Shown piece after piece: positions 3,005-60,988 of a stretch of 64,000 bases of DNA. Location of the stretch: NCBI GenBank assembly GCA_001724265.1, contig MEDY01000042.1:62001-126000 (forward strand), written 5' to 3'. The position numbers were made by a program, and so were the translations under genes. The stretch is from Rhizaria sp. SCN 62-66. Its lineage: Eukaryota. How positions within the stretch are numbered: the stretch's first letter is position 1; each line of letters begins with the position of its first letter. Under the pieces are notes generated by a model that saw only the letters and a list, made by a program, of their open reading frames with translations, was not told the origin of the DNA and did no database searches.

Positions 3005-3319
3005 TTACGCGACGACGACGTCAACGGCAGCCTTGCCCTTGGCAGAGGAGCCGACGGTGAACTCGACCTTCTGGCCCTCCTGGAGGGAGCGGTAGCCGGA
3101 GCCCTTAATGCCGGTGAAGTGGACGAAGACGTCAGTGCCATCGTCACCACCGATGAAGCCGAAGCCCTTGGTGGCATCGAACCACTTGACGGTGCCAGTA
3201 GCACGGGCGCCAGCAGAGGGAGCATCGGAGAAGAAGCGGGGGAGCGCGGTGGCAAGGGGAGCAACCGCGGCGGGCTTGGCGAGGAAGGCGATAGCGCGCT
3301 TGGAGAAGATGGACAGCAT
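3005..3319 (-). CDS. Cold-shock domain (CspA-like) protein with N-terminal mitochondrial-type presequence, 104 aa
   Basis: [16 protein letters not shown] (RNP1) ... DVFVHFTGI (RNP2) ... [13 protein letters not shown]. The first ~31 aa are basic/hydrophobic with no acidic residues and end ...LPRFFS-D. Stop TAA. Confidence 0.92.
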
Positions 3320-4181
3320 GTCGGCTAAGTCTGCGGTAATCAGGGAGATAAGACAAAGGGGTAGAAAGTCAGATTAGTCAGATAATTCTAGTAATACGAG
3401 CGTGCAACGACCATGTGAAAGTGCTGGAGCAACTCGCCGAGAAGTGAACATGTTGTGGCCGCTTGATATGGTGGCGCAAAACAGGGGACCAAAAATCATG
3501 CGGCAGTGGTGCGCAGAAAACATGCCGGGTTGTGCGAGTGCCTCCAAAAACAGGGAAGACGTCACGCACCAGTAGTGCGAAAATAAAAGATACATCAAGT
3601 GGTGCCTATTAATTTTAAGGAACAATGTCTGACTTCTATCCAACCGCGCACTGTGCCAATATGCACCTGGCAAATCCAACCCCAACCACACCACCGCAGG
3701 CCTTGCCAGCAATGACCGTGCAGACCGTGAGCAGGCCTAGTTCCCTCTCGCTCTTGCCAAACCGACTCCATATCTGGGCTCGTATTTGTAAAATGACACT
3801 ACGACACTTTGTTTAGACATTAATTTACTTTTATTATTCTAATTCTAGTTTCTTTAAGTCAACGACGATCGTCTTGACGATTTACCTGCCAGTTTTGCTT
3901 GCTTCCCGACCCCCTTTGTACCTTGGGCGTCGCACGGTTTCTGCCTCGAGCGCAACTATATTATCAGTAATTTCAATTCTGTATCTTGTTCTGTCTACTA
4001 ACCTAGTACCAATGTGTAATATTTTGCTTAAATAACTACTACTTATTGTTTTGATCTCTGAAACGCGTCTGTAGACCGAACTGCTTGTGTCTGTGGGTGA
4101 GAGCGACTTTCGCACCAACCTATCACACTTCACCACAGTCCTGCGTTCTGTCCCAGCGCTCTTTGCGTGCGCTCCCGTCGC

Positions 4182-4636
4182 ATGTCCACACATGCTGCTG
4201 CTGCTGCTGATGGCAGCGGTGAGATTTACGTGCAGCGTATGATTGCCGGCATCATCGTTTCCGCCATCACCTCTGCCGCACCCTCTCATTGTAACAACAA
4301 AGACACTGTGACCGCCGCTGCGGAGGACACTGCAGCTGCTGTGTCCTAGTGCGGCACTGAGGACGACGACAGCTCTGTTAAGGTGTACATCCGCAGTCTT
4401 ATCGAGGAAATTATTACCAGCGCCATCGCCCAGGCCTCCGCTCCCACTGCTGCGGTCGCTGCAGTCGCTCACTCCGCAGACGCTGGGGCGACCGCGTCTA
4501 CTGCAGACGCCGCCTCCGCAGCGCACCCTGCTCTGCCCGCTGCACTCTGCGCCGACCTCGCATCCGCGGCCGCCCGGTTGGCGTCCGCCCGCGCCGCCGC
4601 GCGCGCCGAGCTCGACCGCGGCAGCGAACACACGCG

Positions 4637-4668
<32 letters not shown>

Positions 4669-7600
4669 CGACCGCGCTGGCGGCCAAGCGCGCCGCCGAC
4701 GCCGCGTGGCGCGATCACGCCAGCAAGACGAAGACCGTGGCCGAGGCGGCGGCGCACGCGGCGGTGATCGCGGCGCAGGCGGAACGGACTGCGCTTAAGG
4801 CGTTGATGGCCAAGGAGAGCTCCCCGCTCGCGATGCTGTCCTCCGACTACAGCAGCAAAGACAACAACGACGACGACGCTGAAAACATCACCACAAACGC
4901 GGACGATTTTGCCGCCGTTGCTGTTGCTTTGAGTGCTGATGCTGGCATCGCACACGCGAGCGACGACGAAGAGGAAGAAGAAGAGATTGCACTTGAGGAG
5001 GACTTCACTGCCGCTGCCGCCGCCGCAGCCGCAGGGGCTGCTGACGCCCGTGCCAGTGCGAGTGGTAGTGATGGCTTGCTGCGCGTCTCTGTGCCAGAAC
5101 ACGAGGCACACATGCAGGAACACATGCGTCAACTCGCGCTCTCACTGCCCGGCGCCGCCGACGCCGCCGCGCGCCGCCGCGCAACCACCGCCGCTCTACG
5201 CTCGCAGCTCAAGACCCTCTCGGCCGACGCGGCGGCCGCGGCCGAGGTCGCTGCTGCCGCGCGCGCGGAGGCGCTGGCAGCGACACAAGAGGCTATGCGT
5301 GCGGTCACCACGCCTGTTATGGGGCCGGCGACGCCGCGAGCCGGCGCGGGAAGTCTGGCCGCCGGGGAAAGTCAAGCCGCTGCTTCAGCGTCATCGTCTT
5401 CGGCGGTGCTGCTCGTGCCGGAGCTTGACATCCGCGGCGCTCTTGACTCTGACTTGAGCACTACCGACGGAGCACACAACATTCAGAGCACTGTTGTTGA
5501 GCACAAGAGCCATGATAAACCCAACGCCACGACTGTTGTCGTCGACGCTGCTGCGTTCGACGCGCACTGCAACTGCGGCGCTGACGCTATCGCTGCTTCT
5601 GCTGCTGCTGGTGGCGCTGCTGCTGTCTCTGCGTCGTCGTCGTCATCGCTCTCTGCGGCGCTCCACGGCCCCTCGTGCCCCGCACTGCTTTCCTCCCCCG
5701 CCGCCGTGGCCGACCACGACCTTCCACCATCGGTGTCCGCCGTCGCCGAAGCCGTCGCCCACGCGCACGACCTCGCTGCAGGTCCGCGTGCGCCGCTGCT
5801 GGCGCTCACCTCGCCACCCGGCGGCCCGCAGCCCGCTCTGCGCGCTCAGCTGTCGCTTGTCTCCGCCGCCGCCGCGTCCGCCGCGATGGCGCGCGCAGAG
5901 GCAGCGACCGCGGCGGAGGAGACCCGCGCGAAGACCAGGGCTGCGGGCAAGGCGGCGGCCACGACCGCGGCGGCGGCGGCTGCGGCACACGCTGCTCTTG
6001 CTCAGGTACGTAATATCTCAAACAAAGCGAAACCTTACTTAGCTATCAAAAGTTGTCCGATACCTTTACGATTGAACCTTACACACGATTATTTTCCTGT
6101 TTTCACCCTCTTTTGTTTTGATTTCATAATAGGCGCGTGCCGGCCACCGCGCCGCGATGGCGAACGTGCTGGCCGACGTTAAGGCCGCCGCTGTCGAGCT
6201 CCGCTCCATGGCAGTCAGCGCGAACACCGACGCCGCGCGCGCCGAGGCCGACGCTGCCGAGGCTGAAGTGGAGGCGTTGATGGCGACTACGCTGACGGCG
6301 ACGCTGTCCAACTCGTACAACTCGCGTGGCAATGCGGTGACGGGGAAACCGACACTGGCGAGAGTCGGTGAGACTGAAGCCGACGAAGAGAAGACTTCTC
6401 ACACTGTCGCGAAAACCGCTGACTCTACTGCTGGTGAGTCTGTTGTAGCTGCGAAGGTCGTGCTCACTGTGACAGACTGCGCTGAAAGTCTCGCTAAGAG
6501 CAACTCTCGTGCGGGCAAGCCTGAGTTTGTCCCTGTGCCGCTGCAGTCTGTCGTCGCCTCTGCTGCTGCTGCTGCTCCGGAGGTCGCTGTCGACTCTGTT
6601 GTCAATCTAGACTTCATCAACGAGCAGTTGCGCGATGCCCAGCTTAAGATTGCTGCCGCCGAAGCCATGGCGGCCGAGGCCGTGTCCCGCGCGTCAATCG
6701 CCGAAGGCATGGCTCTCGCGGCGGACGGCCGGTCCGCAGCGGCCGACGCCAAGGCTGCCGCCGCCGAGGCGAAGGCCGCTGCCGCCGGCGTGGGCACTGC
6801 GGAGGCTGAGAGCGCGTTGCTCGCCAAACTGCGCGCTGCTGAGCAAAGCGCAGCAGACGCGCGGGCGGATGCCGCGGCTGCGAAGGCTGCGATCGCTCAG
6901 CTTGAGGCCGCATCCTCCACGGCAGCTGCGCAAACCGAGTCAATGCTCGCGCAGTCACAGGCCGAGGTTCTGCGTCTGCAGTCTCTGCTCACAGCCTCTC
7001 AGAGCGTCAGTGCTGATTCTGCCGATGCGATTGCGCGCGCCGATGCCGCTGAGGCCGCTTGGGCCACTGCCCAGTCGCGCGCCGAGACCGCTGAGTGCCG
7101 CGCCGCCGCCGCCGAGGCCCGTATCGCTGCTGCCGAGGCCGCCGCTACCGAGGCCAAGGCCGCTGCCGCTGAGGCTGCTGCAGCCGCCGCGGACGCTGAG
7201 GAACGTGCCGCCGAGGCGGAGGCCGCGGCCGCGTTTGGCGCCGCCGCGGACTCGCTTTTTGGCTCCCCCGTCGCCCCCATCGCTCCTCATAGTATCAGCG
7301 AGCCCTCGGACTCGGTCCGCGACGCCTCGTCGCGCTCTGCAGCGCAGGCGGAGAAGGTCGCCGAGCTTGAGACTGCGTGCGCAGGGCTCGAAGCCACTGT
7401 CGCGCAGCAGAGCGCTGAGCTACACCGCGCTCAGTCCGACGCGGCGCGCACCGAGGCAGCGTTGCGGCGTGACGTTGCCGCCGCGCGCGCTGATGCTGAC
7501 GCCGCAAGGTCTGCGTACGCCGCACTTCAGTCTGACTTTAACGCCGCTGTCGCCAACGCAAGAACAGGCGTAAATACGAGTATGAGTGCGAGTAATGTGG

Positions 7601-9591
7601 CGATCACGCACTCGCCGTCCACCGAGGCTGCAGTGACCGCCGCCGTGGCCGCCGCGGTGCGCGACACCAGCGCTAAGTTCGCCGTCGCCCTCACCGCTCT
7701 GCGCGCGCACATGGCCGCGCAGCACCGCGACGCCGAGGCCGCGCTCGCGCATCTGCGCAGTCAGCACGCCGCCGCGTTTGCCGCCGCCGAAAGGGCCCAT
7801 GCCGCGGCGTTAGAGGAGGCGCAGGCCCGTGGAGCGCAGAACGCAACCGCGCTGGGCCGCGCGGGCGCCGAGACGCTCGCCGAGCGCGCGGCGGCGCACG
7901 AGGCGGCGCTGGCGCGGGCGCGAGCACAAGTCGACGCCGCGCGCGAGGACGCTGAGTTAGCCGCGGAAGACGCCGCCGCCGCGCGTGAGGAAGCGGCTAA
8001 AGCGGACGCCCGCGTCGCTGAAGTCCTCGCCGCTGAGGAAGAGCGCCGCGCTGATTTAGAGCAGGCGGTGCGTGAGGCTGAGGAGGAGGTCAACGCCGCG
8101 CGCGCCGCCGCCGCGATGCAGGCGAGCACAGTGTCTGCGCAGGCCGCGCAGCTGGTTGAGCTGCACTCGTACTGCGTCGAACTGGAGGATTTGGTCGAGC
8201 AAGGTGACGGCGAGGCCGCGTTCGAGGGCCGCCGCACGCGCCGCGCGCTCGTTGAGGAGGCCTCTGCGCTGTCGCAACGGCTGGCCACGGCGCGAGTCGC
8301 CGCGGACAAGGCCCGCGAGGAGCGCAATCGTGACCGCACGCAGTGCGAGGCCGCGGTCGCCGCGCTGCTGGCCGGCTGGGTGCTCGGTGACCGGCCGCCG
8401 TTGGAGGCGCATGCGATGGCGGCGCGGCAAACCACTGCGCTCGCCCCCAGCAAGAGCTCGGGCTCGGTGGTCGAGGCCGCTGCCGCTGCGCGTGCGCGTG
8501 CGCTGTTGTATCTCCAGTTCGTGCCGCAAGATGTGCTCGCTTCTCCTGTCGCGCCCTCTGCGATCTCCACTGCAATGGCCACCGCCGTGAACTCCAGCAG
8601 CAGTAGCGGTGCGGGGTCGCCAATGTCTGCGCGCATGCAGTCTCCGTCCCGCGGGCCGACCCCATTTGCGTACCAGTCGCAACAGCAGCAGCCGCGGCGC
8701 GAGAGAGGCGTCGTGCTGCATTTACCGCCCGTCGCACTGCCCGTGACCGCACCCGCCACCGTCGCTGACGCTTCCGCGACCGCGCGCGCGCTGTCGGCGC
8801 AGATGGGCATCGACGCGGGGACCAAGAACGCGCACAAGAGGGCGGTTGACGCCATTGCTGGTGCGGCGGCTAGTGTGGAGGCCCGGGCGTACCGTGGCCG
8901 CGCGCGTAGCAGCCGTCGCGTCAGTGAGGAGGAGGAGGACGAACGTAAGGTGAACAGTGAGGATAACGACTACGACGTTGCCAATGAGGATTATGGTGCT
9001 TGTGGCGCTTACAGTGATAGCGATGAAGAAGGCGCACACGTGCGTTACGGCGGCGCTGCGAGCGGTCACACTAACAGCGAGTACAGTAACGGTCAACACA
9101 GCGACGAGGATGAAGATGACTATTACTACGAGCGCAGCAAGAGCAATATGACCGCCGCCCACTCGCACGCACGCCACGGTAGCCGCCGCGGGGATGATCT
9201 CGACGTCACTGTGGCGACATGCGCGACCCCCCGCAATCGCGTGTTGGCTGAGACTCAGTGTCAGGCTCAGACTGCGCCCAAGACGGTTCCGCTGTCGCTC
9301 GCAGTGCCGTACCCGTCCAACACGCAGTCACAATGCCAGAGGCCGCGGTCCCGCTCGCAGTCGCCCGCGCCCATGCGCCAGCAGCAGCAACAGCACGCGG
9401 CGCGCACAAGTGTCGCGATCGTGGCCGCATCGGGCAGCGCGCCGCCCCCTGCGCTGGTAAATCCGCCCAAGTCGCAGTGGAACGCGTGGCGCGTACAACC
9501 GAGCGCGCCCGCAGCGACAACAACAGCTGATCCTAGCCACGTGTACACGGTTGAGGACCAGCTTGATGATCTGTTTGCCGAGTTTCTGTGA
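4182..9591 (+). CDS. Large Ala-rich coiled-coil protein (~1760 aa if the in-frame TAG at 4347-4349 is read through); exons 4182-6005, 6133-9591
   Basis: ATG 4182, ORF 4167-4349 and ORF 4383-6182 share one frame, separated only by the TAG. Intron 6006-6132 (CAG|gtacgt...aatag|GCG) joins in phase 0 to ORF 6157-9591. Long A/E/R helical stretches. Stop TGA. Confidence 0.7.
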
Positions 9592-11893: not shown

Positions 11894-14800
11894 ATGGGGT
11901 GCATTGCCTCCTCAATGGAGGAGCCAGTGCAAAGCTCTTTGCCGCAACAAGTTCCGAGCCCTGCAAGTGCTGCAAGTCCAGTGTCACCCCTCGTCGTATC
12001 CCTGTCTCATCGTGATCCCACGTCTGTGATGACACACAGCGACGAGATTGCAGAGGCGGCCACAACTGGCAGCTTAAAGCCAAAGCCATCTCAAAGCAAC
12101 GCAAAGTGCGCTACTTCAGGACCTATCGCACCGGTTGTGCGAGTGCGTAGCCGCTCAGATCTCACTGGCACATTCGGCACCTCGGACAGCGAAGGTGACA
12201 ACGTAAACGGGACTGCGTCTTCAAGTTGTCGCACCAGCGACACCAACGGCAACTTCTTTGAGATCGACACTGACGAGGAATTCTATCCAGACGCCGACGC
12301 CGTGCTGCGCGGACTTGCCATCGGCGCATTATCCCCGTGTCATCGGTCTGCGGCTAGGACAGAATCTTTCGCCCACAGCGGCACAGCGCCTGGCGCTACT
12401 GCGCAGCGGCTGGGTCTCGCTCTCACGCGGCCTGCTCCGGGGCGACACGCCACCTCACTCACTGCAACTGCAAGCAGCATGGAGCGCGTGCGCGCGAGTG
12501 TGCTGACGCAGCCACAGTGCTGTGTTGTGCGGCCGGCTGCGAGTGCGCGACTGTGGCTCGGTCCGTTTTTGTTGCGTGACTCAGTTGTTGCGCACAGCGG
12601 CCGCATCTGCACACTTGCATCAGCAGCTGTGAACTCGGTGAACGCGAGCAGCGGTGCAACAGAGAAGCGGTGCTATGCAGTGACTGTGGATGGCAAACAT
12701 GGTCTGCCGAAGCTGTGGGCAACGCAGCTGAAGCAAACACAAGCTCCGACTAAAGCAACTGAGGCTATGAAAGCTGTTGCGCTAAACAAACCCCAGCGCC
12801 CGCGAAGTGGTTTTGTAGCATTCTATGCCCCTGACACGGCTGATAGGGAGAATGCCAATCTGTGGGGCGAAGATGAAAATGACGCAAACGCTGGTAACGT
12901 CAAGGCTAGCAAAGGTCTTGCGAGCAAGCGCAATGGCGGAGATCAACGCACTCGTATCACCTTGGCGCACCCGCTGCTCGGTCACCACGCAAATGCACCG
13001 ATTCACGCTGTTGCATTAATGCCGTTTAAGCACCATACCGAAGAGAACGAGACGCTTGTGGTTGTCACAGGAAGCGAAGACTGCACGCTTAAGGTCGTAC
13101 GTTCAAAAAACGAGTGTGTTTGACTACTCTAACTTTCATATCGTAAAATTGAACCGACCCACTTAAGCTAACCTATGACTAAATCACATGTGTTTCATTT
13201 TATTAAGCGTAGTGGTGCCCTGAGACAGGCATGTGCGTCCGCACTTTTCTGCGTCACTCAGCAATTCTGCACGCCACTCTCATTACTGCACCGTTACCCA
13301 CAGCTTCTACAGACGGCAAACACGTGCAACACAGGGTTGAATGCCCGTGGGTGCTGTGGAGCGAGGCCGGCAGCAGCACTGTACGCGCGCTTGCGATTCC
13401 ACAAGAGAGGAATGTTGCGGCGCCAAGTTTTGATCGGACACATGGTCTTCCGTTGCACAGTGCATCATTGGCCACTGTACCGCCATCACCAAAGCGCAGC
13501 GCCACAGTTGGCACTCTTTCGTCTTCGATAGTGCTTGGGACTGATGAGAAGCATGACGAAGAAAGCACACACAACATGGCAAACGCCGCCAGTGGGACGC
13601 TGAGGAATGTTACTGGTGACACACAGGGTAAGCCAACGCCAACAGTTGATCGCAAGAGTGGGGGGGCCAGCTCAACTCATTGTGCTGCCGGCTTACAGTC
13701 GCATTTACAGCCAGTCAATAACGGCGTTCAAAATGTACCCACAAACTGTGCGCCTGCGGGGGTTATTGCCACTGCTGACAGGATACCTATTACTGGAGCT
13801 CGTGGTCTACCAAGGAGCCGCAGTGCCAGTACAGTAACTTTGTCTCCATCAAGTCGCACCTTGTCAACTTTCGAAGAAGATTTTTCATTTGCACATTTAT
13901 CTCGTAGCAACTTAGAGCACCGCGGAGTCAAAACTCAAAGTCAAGCACATGAAACAGTTGATCGCGATTTACTCGAGAGCAGCCACGGGCAGCGGTTCAG
14001 CGCACTGCACACGAATCCTCTTGGTGCTTACAGTCATCTGTCGCCTCGTGGCCGCATCAATGCAAATAACAGTGTTCATACTGTGCACGGATCCGTACAG
14101 CGTCGCGGTGACGCCTGTGTAAGCTCGGATGCGCGAAGCCACCTGCCTGCGCCCATCATTGCGGTCACTGACAAAACAGCATCTCACGGGCACAGTTCTG
14201 TTTTACATTGCAACACTGAGAGTCGTGCTATTTCGCCGTCACCTGCAACAAGTGCTGCATCTCGCGCTTTCATCTTTCCGACTTTGCCAGCTGTACCACC
14301 ACAGGTCGCACTCGTTGCATCTCCGACAATGGCGCGCGCATTCGCCGCCAGCAAACACACTGTGGATACGACACGCGCTGATGCACACACTGCCGTTGTC
14401 AACGGGCTGGATGAGCCGTTACGTCTACGCTCACACAGTCACCAGCCATGGGCACTGATACCAGTCAAGGCCGCGTTCTTTTTAAGTCCTCATAACGCAA
14501 CGCGTGGCGATGCTGATGCAGCTCAGCGCAACTGCTAGCACGACAGCGGTTACGGTGGGTGTTTGAGTATTGCGCGAGATGGGGTCCGTCTGTGGCGGCC
14601 ACCTGCGATGTTGCCAGTCGCATTGTGGCCACTGCCTGATGTCCCTGCGCACAAGGATCATCCGTCGACCGCATTGCGTCCGCTGCTCACAGTCACTGCG
14701 GCTTGTATCGGACCGCCTGGAGTTCTACTCCTTGCCGGTACTGTTGCAATCGACGCGAAGATCGCGATCACACAGCACTTGCCAGCAACGCAAGGGATTG

Positions 14801-56338: not shown

Positions 56339-59300
56339 TCACATGATGTCGAGCTTGAGGCGGGGCATGACGTTCATCGCCTGCAGCTCCTGGAACAGCA
56401 GCTTGCACGCGTACGGCAAGCGGATCGACACGAGCTGGCCACCGGCCTGGCAGTAATGGCACCAGTTATCGTAACCCAACAGACCGCAGTCCTTGCAGAC
56501 GTGCACGGGGAACGCGTCGGAAGACATGAGCAGACGCTCTTGCAGCATCGCCGATGCACCGTAGCCGATTAAGCAATCGCGCTCCATTTCACCGAGACGC
56601 AGACCACCGTCGCGCGAGCGGCCTTCCGTGGGCTGGCGCGTCAGCACGGCGCGAGGACCGCGGGAGCGGGCGTGCATCTTGTCCATGACCATGTGCTTGA
56701 GCTTCTGGTAGTAGATGGGGCCCGCGAAGACGAACGCAGACAGGGGCTCGCCAGTGATACCGCAGGTGAGGATGTCCTTGCCAGAGTAGGTGTAGCCCTT
56801 GTCGACGAGGATCTGGCTCACTGCCGTCACCTTGTCGCCGCCGAACGCCGTGCCGTACTTGAACGAACCCTGTTGGTGCGTAAAAAAATTATCAAAAAGA
56901 AAAAAGCCAGTGAGATACATATTGATATGTTATAATTGTGAATTTACGTATTATATCCCGAATTAAACAATTATTGCTAAATTACACGATATTATATATT
57001 ATATTTCATCAAAACAAGAGTTATTTGCACATATATGGCGTAATTTACGTACCTGAAGGACACCAGCCTTGCCGGCAAGGAGCTCAATCATCTTACCGAC
57101 AGTCATACGAGAGGGGAAACCGTGGGGGTTCATGACGAGGTCGGGATACAACCCGCGGTCCGAGAACGGCAGGTCCTCCTGCTCGACGATGATACCGCAC
57201 ACGCCCTTCTGACCGTGACGCGAGGAGAACTTGTCACCGAGCTCGGGGCGACGCGTGGACCGCATGAGGACCTTAACTAGCAGTGTATCGTTCTCGTTCG
57301 ACGAGAGGAGCACCTTGTCGACGTACGCGTACTGCGGGCCCTTGTACGACAGCGCGGCGGGGCGGTACTCCGAATCAGGCAGCGCATTGACGTTGGACAA
57401 CGTATCAGACGTGTTCTTGGGCATCTGCTTGTTGACCAGGATGTCTCCGGGCTCGATCTTGGCGCTGACGTGCGCGATGCCGTCGCGGTCGAGTCCGTTG
57501 TATTTGCGGTAATGAGCCGATGCGCGCATCGTAGCATCCATCTCGGGCGGGCACACGACGCGGTCGAGCGTCTGATTCGCATAGTGCTTCATCGACACGA
57601 CGTTCTTGCGCAGAACCTGGCACATGCCGAAGCCGCGGTCGAGCGAGGCCTTGTTGAGCACGATGGCGTCTTCGATATCATACCCAGAGTAGGACATGAC
57701 GAAGACGGACGCGTTTTGACCGGCGGGGAGCTTGTCAAACCCGACCATTTCGATCGTGTGGGACTGCACCATGGGCCGCTGCGGGTAGCAGAGCAGGTAC
57801 AGCAGCGTGTCGATGCGGTTGAGCTGGTTGTGTGCGATAGAACCGATGGCCTGCTTACCCATGGCACACTGGTAAGTGTTGCGGGGCGACTGGTTGTGGT
57901 GTGGGTAGGGAATCAGACCGGCGACGACGCCGAGGATGGTCATGGGGTCGACTTCGAGGTGCGTGGTCGCGGGCTGGATGTCCTTCTCACGGAGCGCGAT
58001 GAGCGTGTTGTTCTCTTCGTTCACGTCGATGTACTCGACGAGGCCGTCCGCGAGAAACGAGTCGAAGTTGCGGAGCCCCTGGTTGAGCTCACTGAGGTGC
58101 TTCGTCGTAATGCGCGGCACGCCGTTCTCGACGATGATGAGCGGGCGCGTCACACGGCCGCCGTCAGTCGCGATGTAGATCACGCGCTGCTCTTCGTTGA
58201 CGTAGATGGACACGAACACGGGCAGCATGCCCGCGCGGCGGAGAGTGCGGAAGTCGCGCGCGAACTGTGTCGGGTTCTGGTGCACGCCGTAGACCGTACC
58301 GTTGATGACAACGAGAAAAACGGACTTGTGCGCGAGCTCTTCACCGGTCATGAGCTCAGAGTCCTCGACGCCGAGGTTGAAGGCCAGGCGAGCCACGGGC
58401 AGCTCACGGTCGTCGGTGGTGACGTGGGTCAACAGCGCGAGGTTCTTGACGAGACCGCATGACTCGCCTTCGGGAGTGTCGGACGGACACAGCATGCCCC
58501 ACTGCGACGCCTGTAGTGAACGCGGACCGGAGACCTTGCGCGTCTTCTCGAACTGGGAGGTGATGCGCGTCACCATGCCGAGTGCGGCGATGAAAGAGAG
58601 ACGGGAGAGGACTTGGGTAACGCCGGCACGCTCCATGTGGAAACGCTTGACGTTCCAGTTGCCTGTCGCGATCGAGTTTACCAGGCCGTTCGTGATCGTG
58701 TCCTTTAAGAGAGCAAAACAAAGGACGGCGAAAAAAGACAAAAGTGAGGATATAGAGCGTACATAAACAATTTTCAGCGTTGATTTCGCGACAACGAGTG
58801 GATATTGCAGAGTAATGTCGATAGAGCAAACTTGAGCTTGAGAAAATTGAATATACGAGCGCAATGTTGCGATGAAAGAGAGAGTAGTGAAGCGTGATAA
58901 AGCGTACCTGGCGGATGGCCTTGAGGACATCGAACTGCTCCGCCCTGTTTTGCTTCTCCAGCACACTGTCCGCGTACTTACGGAGCTCGGTGTTGAAACG
59001 CTTGAACAGGTCTTCGAAGAGAAGCGAGAGCAGCTGACCAGCCAGCTCGAGACGCTTGTTACCGTAGTAATCCTTATCGTCGACGAGCTTGGGGTCACGC
59101 ACGGCCATGAGTACGCGGCGCACCATGAGCGCGAGGTACACGGTCTTGGCGTGGAAGTTGTAGTTGAGCACGGGGATGTGGGAGCACACAAGGGACGCGA
59201 GAGTGTCGCGGGCTTGGTCGGAGCGAGACTTGGTGGGCTTGCGCATGGGGCCGCTGCCGCTGAACTGAGTGCGGTTGCGGGAGATGCGGATCTTGCTGCC

Positions 59301-60374
59301 GATCCAGTCGAGCGCCTGCAAAATGATTACAAAACGGAGAACCAAAGAGAATTCGTGTGAGAAGTAAAAAGTAGGTGTGAGAACACGAAATCACACTAGA
59401 ATACAACGACAAAATCCCATGAAATGTGCAGTTAGAGTCACATCAGAGCGTATATGCCCTTGAAAGTGGAATGTTTGGCGTACCTGGCTCTCGGTCATGA
59501 GATCGAGCTTCGAGCACTCATCAAGCGAAGGCGCAAGCAGGTCCAGATACTGCGAGCCCACAAGCTGCACGATCGCCTGGTCACTGCCAGCGCCCATGGC
59601 CTTAAACACGGCCGTGATGGGGATGTCCTCCGTGAAGGAGTTGTGGTGCATGTAAACCTTACCGGCCTTGCAGTAGAGGTTCGTCTTAGACTTGCGCTCA
59701 CGGGAGGAGGTGACCGAGGCACAGATCTGGTGCTTCTTGTCGACTTCCACGATGATACGGTTCTTCGACAGCTGCTCCTGAATGAGAATCACCTTCTCGA
59801 CGCCCTTTACGATAAAATAACCTCCGGGGTCGTACATGCACTCGTTGATGGCGGCCAGCTCGCTCTCAGTCTTGCCTTGGAGAACGCAATGCGAAGACCG
59901 CAGCATGATCGGCAGACGGCCAATGGGGACGGCGTTCTGGCGCACGATCTGCTGTCCGTGCACGTACTCGACGTCGACGAGGATCTGCGCAGAGTAGGTC
60001 ATGTCGCGGAGACGGCACTCTTGCGGGGTGACGGACCGGTTGTTGGCGTCCTTTTCGGCGACGGTGGGGCCGCCGATGTAGATGTCGTTGTACTGGAAGT
60101 ACCAGTTGGGCTTCTTGTCGGACGTGATGCGCTGGTTCGCCATCATGATCTGCTTGATCTCGGTCTTGATGAAGTAGTTGTACGAGTCGATGTGTTGGCG
60201 CACTAGGCCCTTGAGCTTGAGGAAGGCGGGAAGCAGCTTCCACTTCTCTTCGAGAGACTTGACGGGCTTGACCAGCTCGTCACGGGAGCAGTCGCCCCAG
60301 AGTTCGCGGAGGTAGGCCGTGATCTCGATGTCGTCGTCGACACCGGCGCCATCGTTGTGGTGGACGTCAGCCAT
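56339..60374 (-). CDS. RPC2: RNA polymerase III second-largest subunit; exons 60374-59484, 59315-58908, 58702-57053, 56869-56339 (1159 aa)
   Basis: [117 protein letters not shown] and [15 protein letters not shown] are Pol III-type motifs. Three phase-0 introns restore the frame. Stop TGA. Confidence 0.97.
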
Positions 60375-60988
60375 ACTGCTTTGCTGCTGCTGAGAGTCTG
60401 GGAAGACTTCAGAGACTGAGGCGGAGGCAGAGACGCGTGCCGAGGGCACTGGTCAATGGAAAGCTACGTGCAAACGACGCCCTAGTGCGGGAAGAGCGTC
60501 GTGGGACGAACGTGGAAAAAGAAGCGGTTGCGCGCAGCGCCAGAACGCCCGTTCTGCGGTAAGAAAGGCGAAGGACTGGGTTGGCTTCGGAACGGGCAGC
60601 GCACTGGGGTATCCGGTGCGATGAACTCCGAACTGTTAGCAACAAAAACAACAAATACAAATAATATACGATTAGACAGGTTCGGGATAGAATACACACA
60701 TTTAAGCACGGTGTCTAGCGCTCTCTACCAGTCAGCTTTCGCACGGTCCTGAGCCGAACCGAGCGCACAACCACAAAAGCAATTTGGCTTTTTTCGACCC
60801 CCGTGCATATCCGAGACCGAATTACCACAAAGGCTCTCATGGTTGCTTTCTACGAGCATGAGTGATATAGTCTTCGATAAATTGTGTATTTCCAATAAAA
60901 TCAAGTACTTCATGGCCAGTTTCAAAGATATACACGACATTTATAGTCAATAGCAAAGATGTGCTGCGCCAAAGCTTGTGTTTGGCGC

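Follow-up and report, generated by a model that had tools for sequence, protein, structure and literature searches.

Evidence that UAG is a sense codon, probably for glutamate, in the nuclear genome of a putative rhizarian

Our analysis of the window (the whole 64,000-nucleotide stretch of contig MEDY01000042.1 under study, numbered from its first nucleotide) began from a plus-strand gene whose first coding exon (4182..6005), read from the ATG at 4182, runs for 55 codons to an in-frame TAG (4347..4349) and then for 552 more open codons, as far as a GTACGT donor (6006); these dimensions bear out the preliminary description, which had noted about 550 open codons after the TAG, and the exon is 608 codons long if the TAG is a sense codon. 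An AT-rich phase-0 intron (GTACGT...TAG, 6006..6132 on the plus strand, about 34% GC) is predicted from the sequence, and joining across it stays in frame with a second plus-strand coding exon of 1,152 codons (6133..9591), giving an alanine-rich protein of about 1,760 amino acids that ends in TGA (at 9591). As the gene is read here ATG 4182 is its putative start; an AT-rich, intron-like stretch (3783-4074, plus strand) lies upstream, and an ATG at about 3712 precedes that stretch. The locus (4182..9591) is single-copy, and its protein has no Pfam family and no usable Atlas match. Divergent from this gene, at 3005-3319 on the minus strand, is a gene for a small protein that by eye resembles cold-shock-domain proteins and has an N-terminal extension like a mitochondrial presequence. 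Farther along the plus strand, a second lone in-frame TAG of the window (14536..14538) lies in an unrelated gene with open stretches of 441 and 402 codons on either side (it fails the coding-score filter described below and was added by eye), and a single Ala/Ser-rich frame is open without a stop for 9,617 codons (24866-53719).

The two flanks of TAG 4347-4349 appear to belong to one polypeptide, as had been proposed from a motif present once on each side of it. Copy 1 (IYVQRMIAGIIVSAIT, 4224..4271, plus strand), which has an amphipathic-helix pattern, and copy 2 (VYIRSLIEEIITSAIA, 4383..4430, plus strand) share 7 of 16 residues with a BLOSUM62 score of 36, a value that the second copy alone reaches among 141,907 windows of 16 residues from long ORFs of the same genome. 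Only 26 of the 48 bases are common to the two copies and four of the seven identical residues are specified by different codons, so the likeness appears to have been conserved at the protein level. The motif of the 1,760-amino-acid protein may be akin to the amphipathic helices by which A-kinase anchoring proteins are known.

A purely local explanation would have the TAG as the acceptor of a 42-nt intron (GTGACC...TAG, 4308-4349), whose GT at 4308 would keep the frame, or would have translation start at the next in-frame ATG (4806, which is 457 nt past the TAG and agrees with the earlier estimate of about 450 nt). The 42-nt segment is, however, 67% GC, has 6 T in its last 40 bases and lacks a pyrimidine tract, whereas the homology-anchored introns of this genome are AT-rich with GTACG-like donors; it is also unlike the gene's own intron, and the earlier observation that no GTACG donor or T-rich acceptor tract surrounds the TAG thus holds. 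A start at 4806 would leave both motif copies untranslated. Our intron finder, which returned 34 introns (shortest 52 nt, median 160 nt), requires AT-richness and so is blind to short GC-rich introns. Many TAGs flagged in the family searches described below were intron acceptors, and RNA cover at this site is thin enough to leave room for splicing: polyA run X5 gives exact contigs at 5003-5289 and 5526-5917, with a depth near the TAG of 0.67-0.93 and no listed piece there, and no splice joint at 4308-4349 is present among the 15 listed of 65 from this run. Neither form of the local explanation accounts for the TAGs in the eRF1, NEK and UBE2J1 genes or for the tRNA discussed below, and we judge it very improbable. 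Sequencing or assembly error is more improbable still. The assembly is a low-depth metagenome (contig depth about 5), but run X4, from a study that is not among the possible sources, has a contig over 3900-4471 that differs at one position (4224) and carries the identical TAG, so the TAG is not an error; run X3, a possible source, has no contig over the site, unlike X4. Errors would moreover yield TAA and TGA as well as TAG. The sequences at hand give no sign of splicing at the TAG or of a start downstream of it, and the independent run reads TAG rather than the CAG or TTG that the preliminary description had asked about.

This TAG had also been called isolated, but in the genome it is one case of a general change in the meaning of TAG. 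Codons were counted with a codon-pair model trained on long open frames, a codon passing if it is flanked on each side by 40 open codons that score as coding in the best frame; this filter was applied alike to every codon of 484 kb (the first 200 kb of contig C4 and of C9, and 84 kb of C42 around the window), a sample chosen without regard to TAG except for the window itself. The 100,237 codons that pass include 8 TAGs (TAG 4347 among them) and no TAA or TGA. The rarest sense codons in the same set are ATA (44) and AGA (67), so that TAG, at about 0.08 per 1,000 codons (0.008%), stands fivefold below the rarest of them. When all 179 loci and the window are taken together, a set that includes loci selected for having a TAG, there are 24 TAGs, 2 TAAs (both in one low-complexity locus) and no TGA; the analysis as a whole covers about 0.9 Mb of the 34.9-Mb assembly. 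From the supply of codons one step away, TAG is expected at about 65% of random nonsense changes, and both the larger set (24 of 26, p=0.0015) and the unselected one (8 of 8, p about 0.03) depart from this. Gene ends in 611 kb, a small sample, comprise 15 TAA, 11 TGA and 2 TAG by the filter, but one of these two TAGs has 52 open codons after it, the other has 16 GC-rich codons before a TGA is reached, and both look internal; the share of TAG among gene ends is thereby 0-1 of 27 against a background of 21.6% (p=0.002-0.012). UAA, the commonest gene end, is absent inside genes in the 484-kb count.

Family searches flagged a TAG inside the match for 11 of 142 kinases, 1 of 54 kinesins, 1 of 43 DEAD proteins, 2 of 18 dyneins, 0 of 20 ABC proteins and 1 of 23 ubiquitins. 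The flags of six kinases, the kinesin, the DEAD protein and both dyneins were dropped as intron acceptors or intronic; five kinase TAGs are exonic, one of them in the copy L071 (C148, 55601-62492, minus strand). This kinase and Sel1-like gene contains three TAGs and, within a Gln tract, an in-frame TAA, and its frame appears to shift in places; it is probably decaying, and its paralogues include L072 and L073. Three nearby single ubiquitin genes (L190; C3, 10811-14026) are unusually divergent, with a short tail past the GG, and two of them have different internal deletions. For tests on individual sites we used 24 TAGs: the 24 counted above minus L084 and L089 (likely in the wrong frame) and L071, plus window position 14536, L065 and the L072 kinase site. 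C follows the TAG at 9 of these 24 sites, which is not an enrichment (p=0.15 to 0.53), and the base after TAG 4347-4349 is T. Programmed site-specific readthrough does not fit a codon that is absent from gene ends and lacks the leaky C context.

One TAG lies in an essential gene, that for the release factor itself. The assembly contains one full eRF1 match (contig C63), with an in-frame TAG at the position of human residue 107; the exon is otherwise open, with 66-71% identity to homologues before as well as after the TAG. Among 117 homologues this column holds E in 106, D in 10, V in 1 and Q in none; the V is that of the closest relative found, P0004 (84% identical). Since the sole eRF1 found carries an in-frame TAG where 106 of the 117 homologues have Glu, the TAG must be translated. 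Two weaker matches on contig C34 are taken to be pelota, and a scan of metagenomes with eRF1 returned one identical contig (L180), with the same TAG in unspliced DNA, and nine distant ones; neither a spliced RNA nor a peptide that crosses a TAG was seen. The protein differs from its homologues at T32S (GTS becoming GSS), G57S, T58K, L126M and K130Q, and keeps E55, NIKS, L69, S70 and Y125/C127/F131. Position 32 is T in 116 of the 117 and S in this organism; T58K is common to P0004, from which T32S is absent. According to the available text of PMC5304391, T32 bonds with the G of UAG; the residue is altered in Iotanema, where UAG is decoded as an amino acid and UAA is not. A change from T to S keeps the hydroxyl, and T32S may be without effect on UAG binding.

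A tRNA that could read UAG is also present. The tRNA pattern search gave 26 matches, among them one full tRNA with a CUA anticodon (C84, 76008-76080, minus strand), a 73-nt standard cloverleaf with a 4-base variable loop that is also found by ARAGORN, scores 58 bits against Rfam RF00005 and is followed by a run of T. Its ARAGORN label, 'Pyl', comes from the anticodon alone; the body is Glu-type. Contig C84 fits the main sample in composition (r=0.93) and also bears a kinase and a kinesin. In a comparison with 14 of the organism's own isotypes (those outside it being His, Phe, Pro, Thr, Trp and Val) the best match is tRNA-Glu(CUC), with 47 of 73 positions; the first five pairs of the acceptor stem are identical to those of the organism's two tRNA-Glu, a likeness seen with none of the other tRNAs sampled. 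It also has U11-A24, U13-G22 and A46 and no base 47, features given in the accessible part of PMC9976931 as determinants of E. coli tRNA-Glu (a bacterial rather than a eukaryotic list). The core (positions 8-63) of this tRNA (L083, 1489-1561) is 75% identical over 56 nt to enterobacterial tRNA-Glu, against 34 of 56 (61%) to the organism's own, so that the gene may have come from bacteria or an organelle, or may have retained an ancestral D-arm. A blastn search of a phage collection gave 17 records that cover at least 77% of the tRNA (9 annotated as tRNA-Glu and 8 unannotated) with weak E values of 0.2-0.6. The pattern matched nothing in viral contigs; in prokaryotic contigs it made five matches, four of them called as CUA tRNAs and up to 52 of 73 positions alike, which were selected by the pattern and identify no donor. 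These four (on prokaryotic MAG contigs among L194-L198) have a Glu-type D-arm and are possibly from recoded phages. Among the organism's other tRNA genes (L003-L031), tRNA-Ala(AGC) has an unusual T-loop (GATCAA), tRNA-Lys(CUU) ends in U73, and the genes are clustered near contig ends.

TAG also interrupts genes for a mitochondrial/bacterial-type MetRS, UBE2J1, a CaMK-like kinase and a NEK kinase. In the last of these (L065) the orthologue P0365 (84% identical, with 20 identical residues flanking the site) has E at the TAG, as does the next closest match; across 287 distant segments this column holds a mixture of residues. The UBE2J1 column is variable (D 57, N 37, H 14, S 7, E 2 and T 2 among 120), as are those of two other kinases, in which E is among the commonest residues. 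Counted by residue, two sites point clearly to Glu (eRF1 and NEK), three fall in variable columns and five are Gln-like in loose sequence. Leucine, the meaning of UAG in exLh and in the TARA ciliates, was rejected as a candidate: it is not dominant at conserved sites, and the 73-nt tRNA with its 4-base variable loop matches tRNA-Leu at 36 of 73 positions.

Glutamine is the more serious competitor, UAG being in that case sense throughout the genome with the meaning it has in Iotanema spirale and some ciliates. Three TAGs sit in polyQ tracts, two stand opposite CAG in paralogous copies of L192 (C681, 1512-4727), and in human NEK1 the residue matching the NEK TAG is Q. (L192 looks decayed; this element-like ORF is lower in GC and contains a ubiquitin domain and an internal repeat.) When one class is forced on the residues flanking the 24 sites, Gln-like contexts (logL -46.4) fit better than Glu-like ones (-51.3); a half-and-half mixture is best (-44.2), however, and 16 of the 24 contexts taken singly score as more Glu-like than Gln-like. 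A flanking-residue classifier across all 20 amino acids gave no usable answer. Against glutamine stand the eRF1 column, which is without Q, and the E of the close NEK orthologue, and the only CUA tRNA found resembles tRNA-Gln least of all (33 and 29 of 73) and has neither the GG start nor the U73 of the organism's own tRNA-Gln. The polyQ cases would arise by C-to-T change of CAG under any meaning of TAG, and the mixture of Glu and Gln contexts suggests that many TAGs came from CAG in this way, in loose sequence. Because UAG is so rare, most TAG sites are probably recent point mutations tolerated where constraint is loose. All told, we consider glutamine unlikely.

It could also be argued that UAG is still chiefly a stop, the internal TAGs being nonsense alleles or parts of decaying genes that are partially rescued by a weak suppressor tRNA. 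The great rarity of TAG in coding sequence (8 occurrences, the rarest sense codon having 44), the single CUA tRNA gene set against 8 pattern matches for tRNA-Glu(CUC), and the decayed look of some TAG loci (L071 and L192) would all fit. Against it stand several of the features described above, namely gene ends without TAG, genes without internal TAA or TGA, a TAG in the sole eRF1 found, TAG 4347 unchanged in another study's sample and sites without enrichment of the leaky C, and we think it decidedly improbable. That UAG is a sense codon of one amino acid or another is thus held here with high confidence, and the likely form of the variant nuclear code is one in which UAG specifies Glu while UAA and UGA remain stops. 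The distribution of stop codons, the TAG in eRF1, the CUA tRNA gene and the eRF1 changes are there to be read in the DNA; from them we infer that the CUA tRNA, having the body of tRNA-Glu, would be charged by GluRS and would pair with UAG and not UAA, that the altered eRF1 (T32S, together with G57S, T58K and K130Q) would bind UAG less well, and that the ribosome would insert Glu at 4347 and go on to make the whole protein of about 1,760 amino acids.

The organism is probably a rhizarian, on the evidence of one gene. This is the gene for RPC2, the second subunit of RNA polymerase III (56999-60452, minus strand), whose closest relatives are environmental proteins with 70-82% identity. In a tree of 45 rows hand-picked from 120 matches, the organism and the environmental proteins fall together with Amorphochlora and Spongospora in a group of 16 rows, with an SH-aLRT value of 92 in a quick tree search, below the mark of 95. 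An 18S locus (L193; C706, 4459-8903) was left out of the placement, its composition being unlike that of the genome (r=-0.35); it is AT-rich, divergent and 4.4 kb long, with several insertions resembling group I introns, and may come from another organism. No intact polyubiquitin junction was seen on which to test for a rhizarian insertion. Sequencing runs of wastewater and bioreactors dated 2015 to 2025 contain DNA of the organism, and this recurrence suggests that it may be culturable.

Two nuclear codes known from the available text of PMC5304391 are most like the present one: Rhizaria sp. exLh (UAG=Leu), which probably belongs to the same supergroup, and Iotanema spirale (UAG=Gln), whose eRF1 is likewise changed at T32, both have UAG as sense and UAA and UGA as stops. 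The amino acid here is, by contrast, most likely Glu, and the CUA tRNA gene is seen where that report merely predicted one; the eRF1 of exLh has L69A, whereas here L69 is kept and T32S is present (PMC5304391). UAG alone is also reassigned in phyllopharyngean ciliates (Leu or Gln) and in Scotinosphaera (Ser), but none of the UAG-only cases covered in the accessible part of PMC11687900 has Glu, and our organism does not group with them in the RPC2 tree (which is without ciliates). Conversely, Oligohymenophorea sp. PL0344 (UAA=Lys, UAG=Glu), as described in the available text of PMC10553269, reads UAG as Glu with a tRNA(CUA) most like tRNA-Glu, as here, but it has UAA as sense and 10 CUA tRNA genes, against a UAA stop, one CUA gene found and very rare UAG in our case. 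In Blastocrithidia (UAR=Glu, UGA=Trp) and the peritrichs (UAR=Glu) UAG is similarly read by tRNA-Glu(CUA), but UAA too is sense there, and UAG makes up 1.4-1.7% of Blastocrithidia codons (accessible part of PMC12153298) against 0.008% here. In the available portions of these four sources (PMC11687900, PMC5304391, PMC10553269 and PMC12153298), UAG-only codes thus have Leu, Gln or Ser, and Glu occurs only where UAA is also reassigned. We found no report of UAG as Glu with UAA as a stop in the literature searched, though supplements and most subscription papers lay outside its scope and such a report may exist; the accessible text of the Rosculus genome paper (PMC10770858) makes no mention of the genetic code.

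The rarity of TAG suggests that its use carries a cost, for example residual termination by eRF1(T32S). Because TAG is fivefold below the rarest sense codon, eRF1 may still compete for it and limit its own synthesis, and one can imagine, as a speculation we regard as rather unlikely, that incomplete reassignment serves as a control circuit in which eRF1(T32S) still partly terminates at the UAG in its own message against a single Glu-type suppressor tRNA. The chance of a TAG in a 432-codon gene such as eRF1 is p=0.034 (noticed post hoc), and the codon after this TAG is AAA, the only one among the 16 Lys codons of the exon. Autoregulation through an internal stop is known in bacterial RF2 and in Mimivirus R726 and Megavirus mg280, and the available text of PMC3521657 gives such control as absent from eukaryotic and archaeal homologues. 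The likeness to these is a stop-type codon inside a release-factor gene; the difference is that the present gene is a cellular eRF1, accompanied by a cognate tRNA, and that its feedback would be hypothetical. The Val of P0004 at this codon speaks against the idea. If real, the circuit would extend feedback of the RF2 kind to a cellular eukaryote.

Reassignment of UAG alone to Glu, if true, would fill in the combination missing from the known codes, and few nuclear codes treat UAG differently from UAA; if the rhizarian placement holds, this would be the second code change in Rhizaria. With both the tRNA and eRF1 in hand, the manner in which eRF1 drops UAG and keeps UAA is directly testable through T32S. 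Since UAG is used so little, the genome may represent codon capture at an early stage or at one where it has stalled, which bears on the debate between codon capture and ambiguous intermediates. In practical terms, eRF1 comes out truncated when the standard code is used for annotation, and so, extrapolating from 0.08 TAG per 1,000 codons, would several hundred further genes of this organism.
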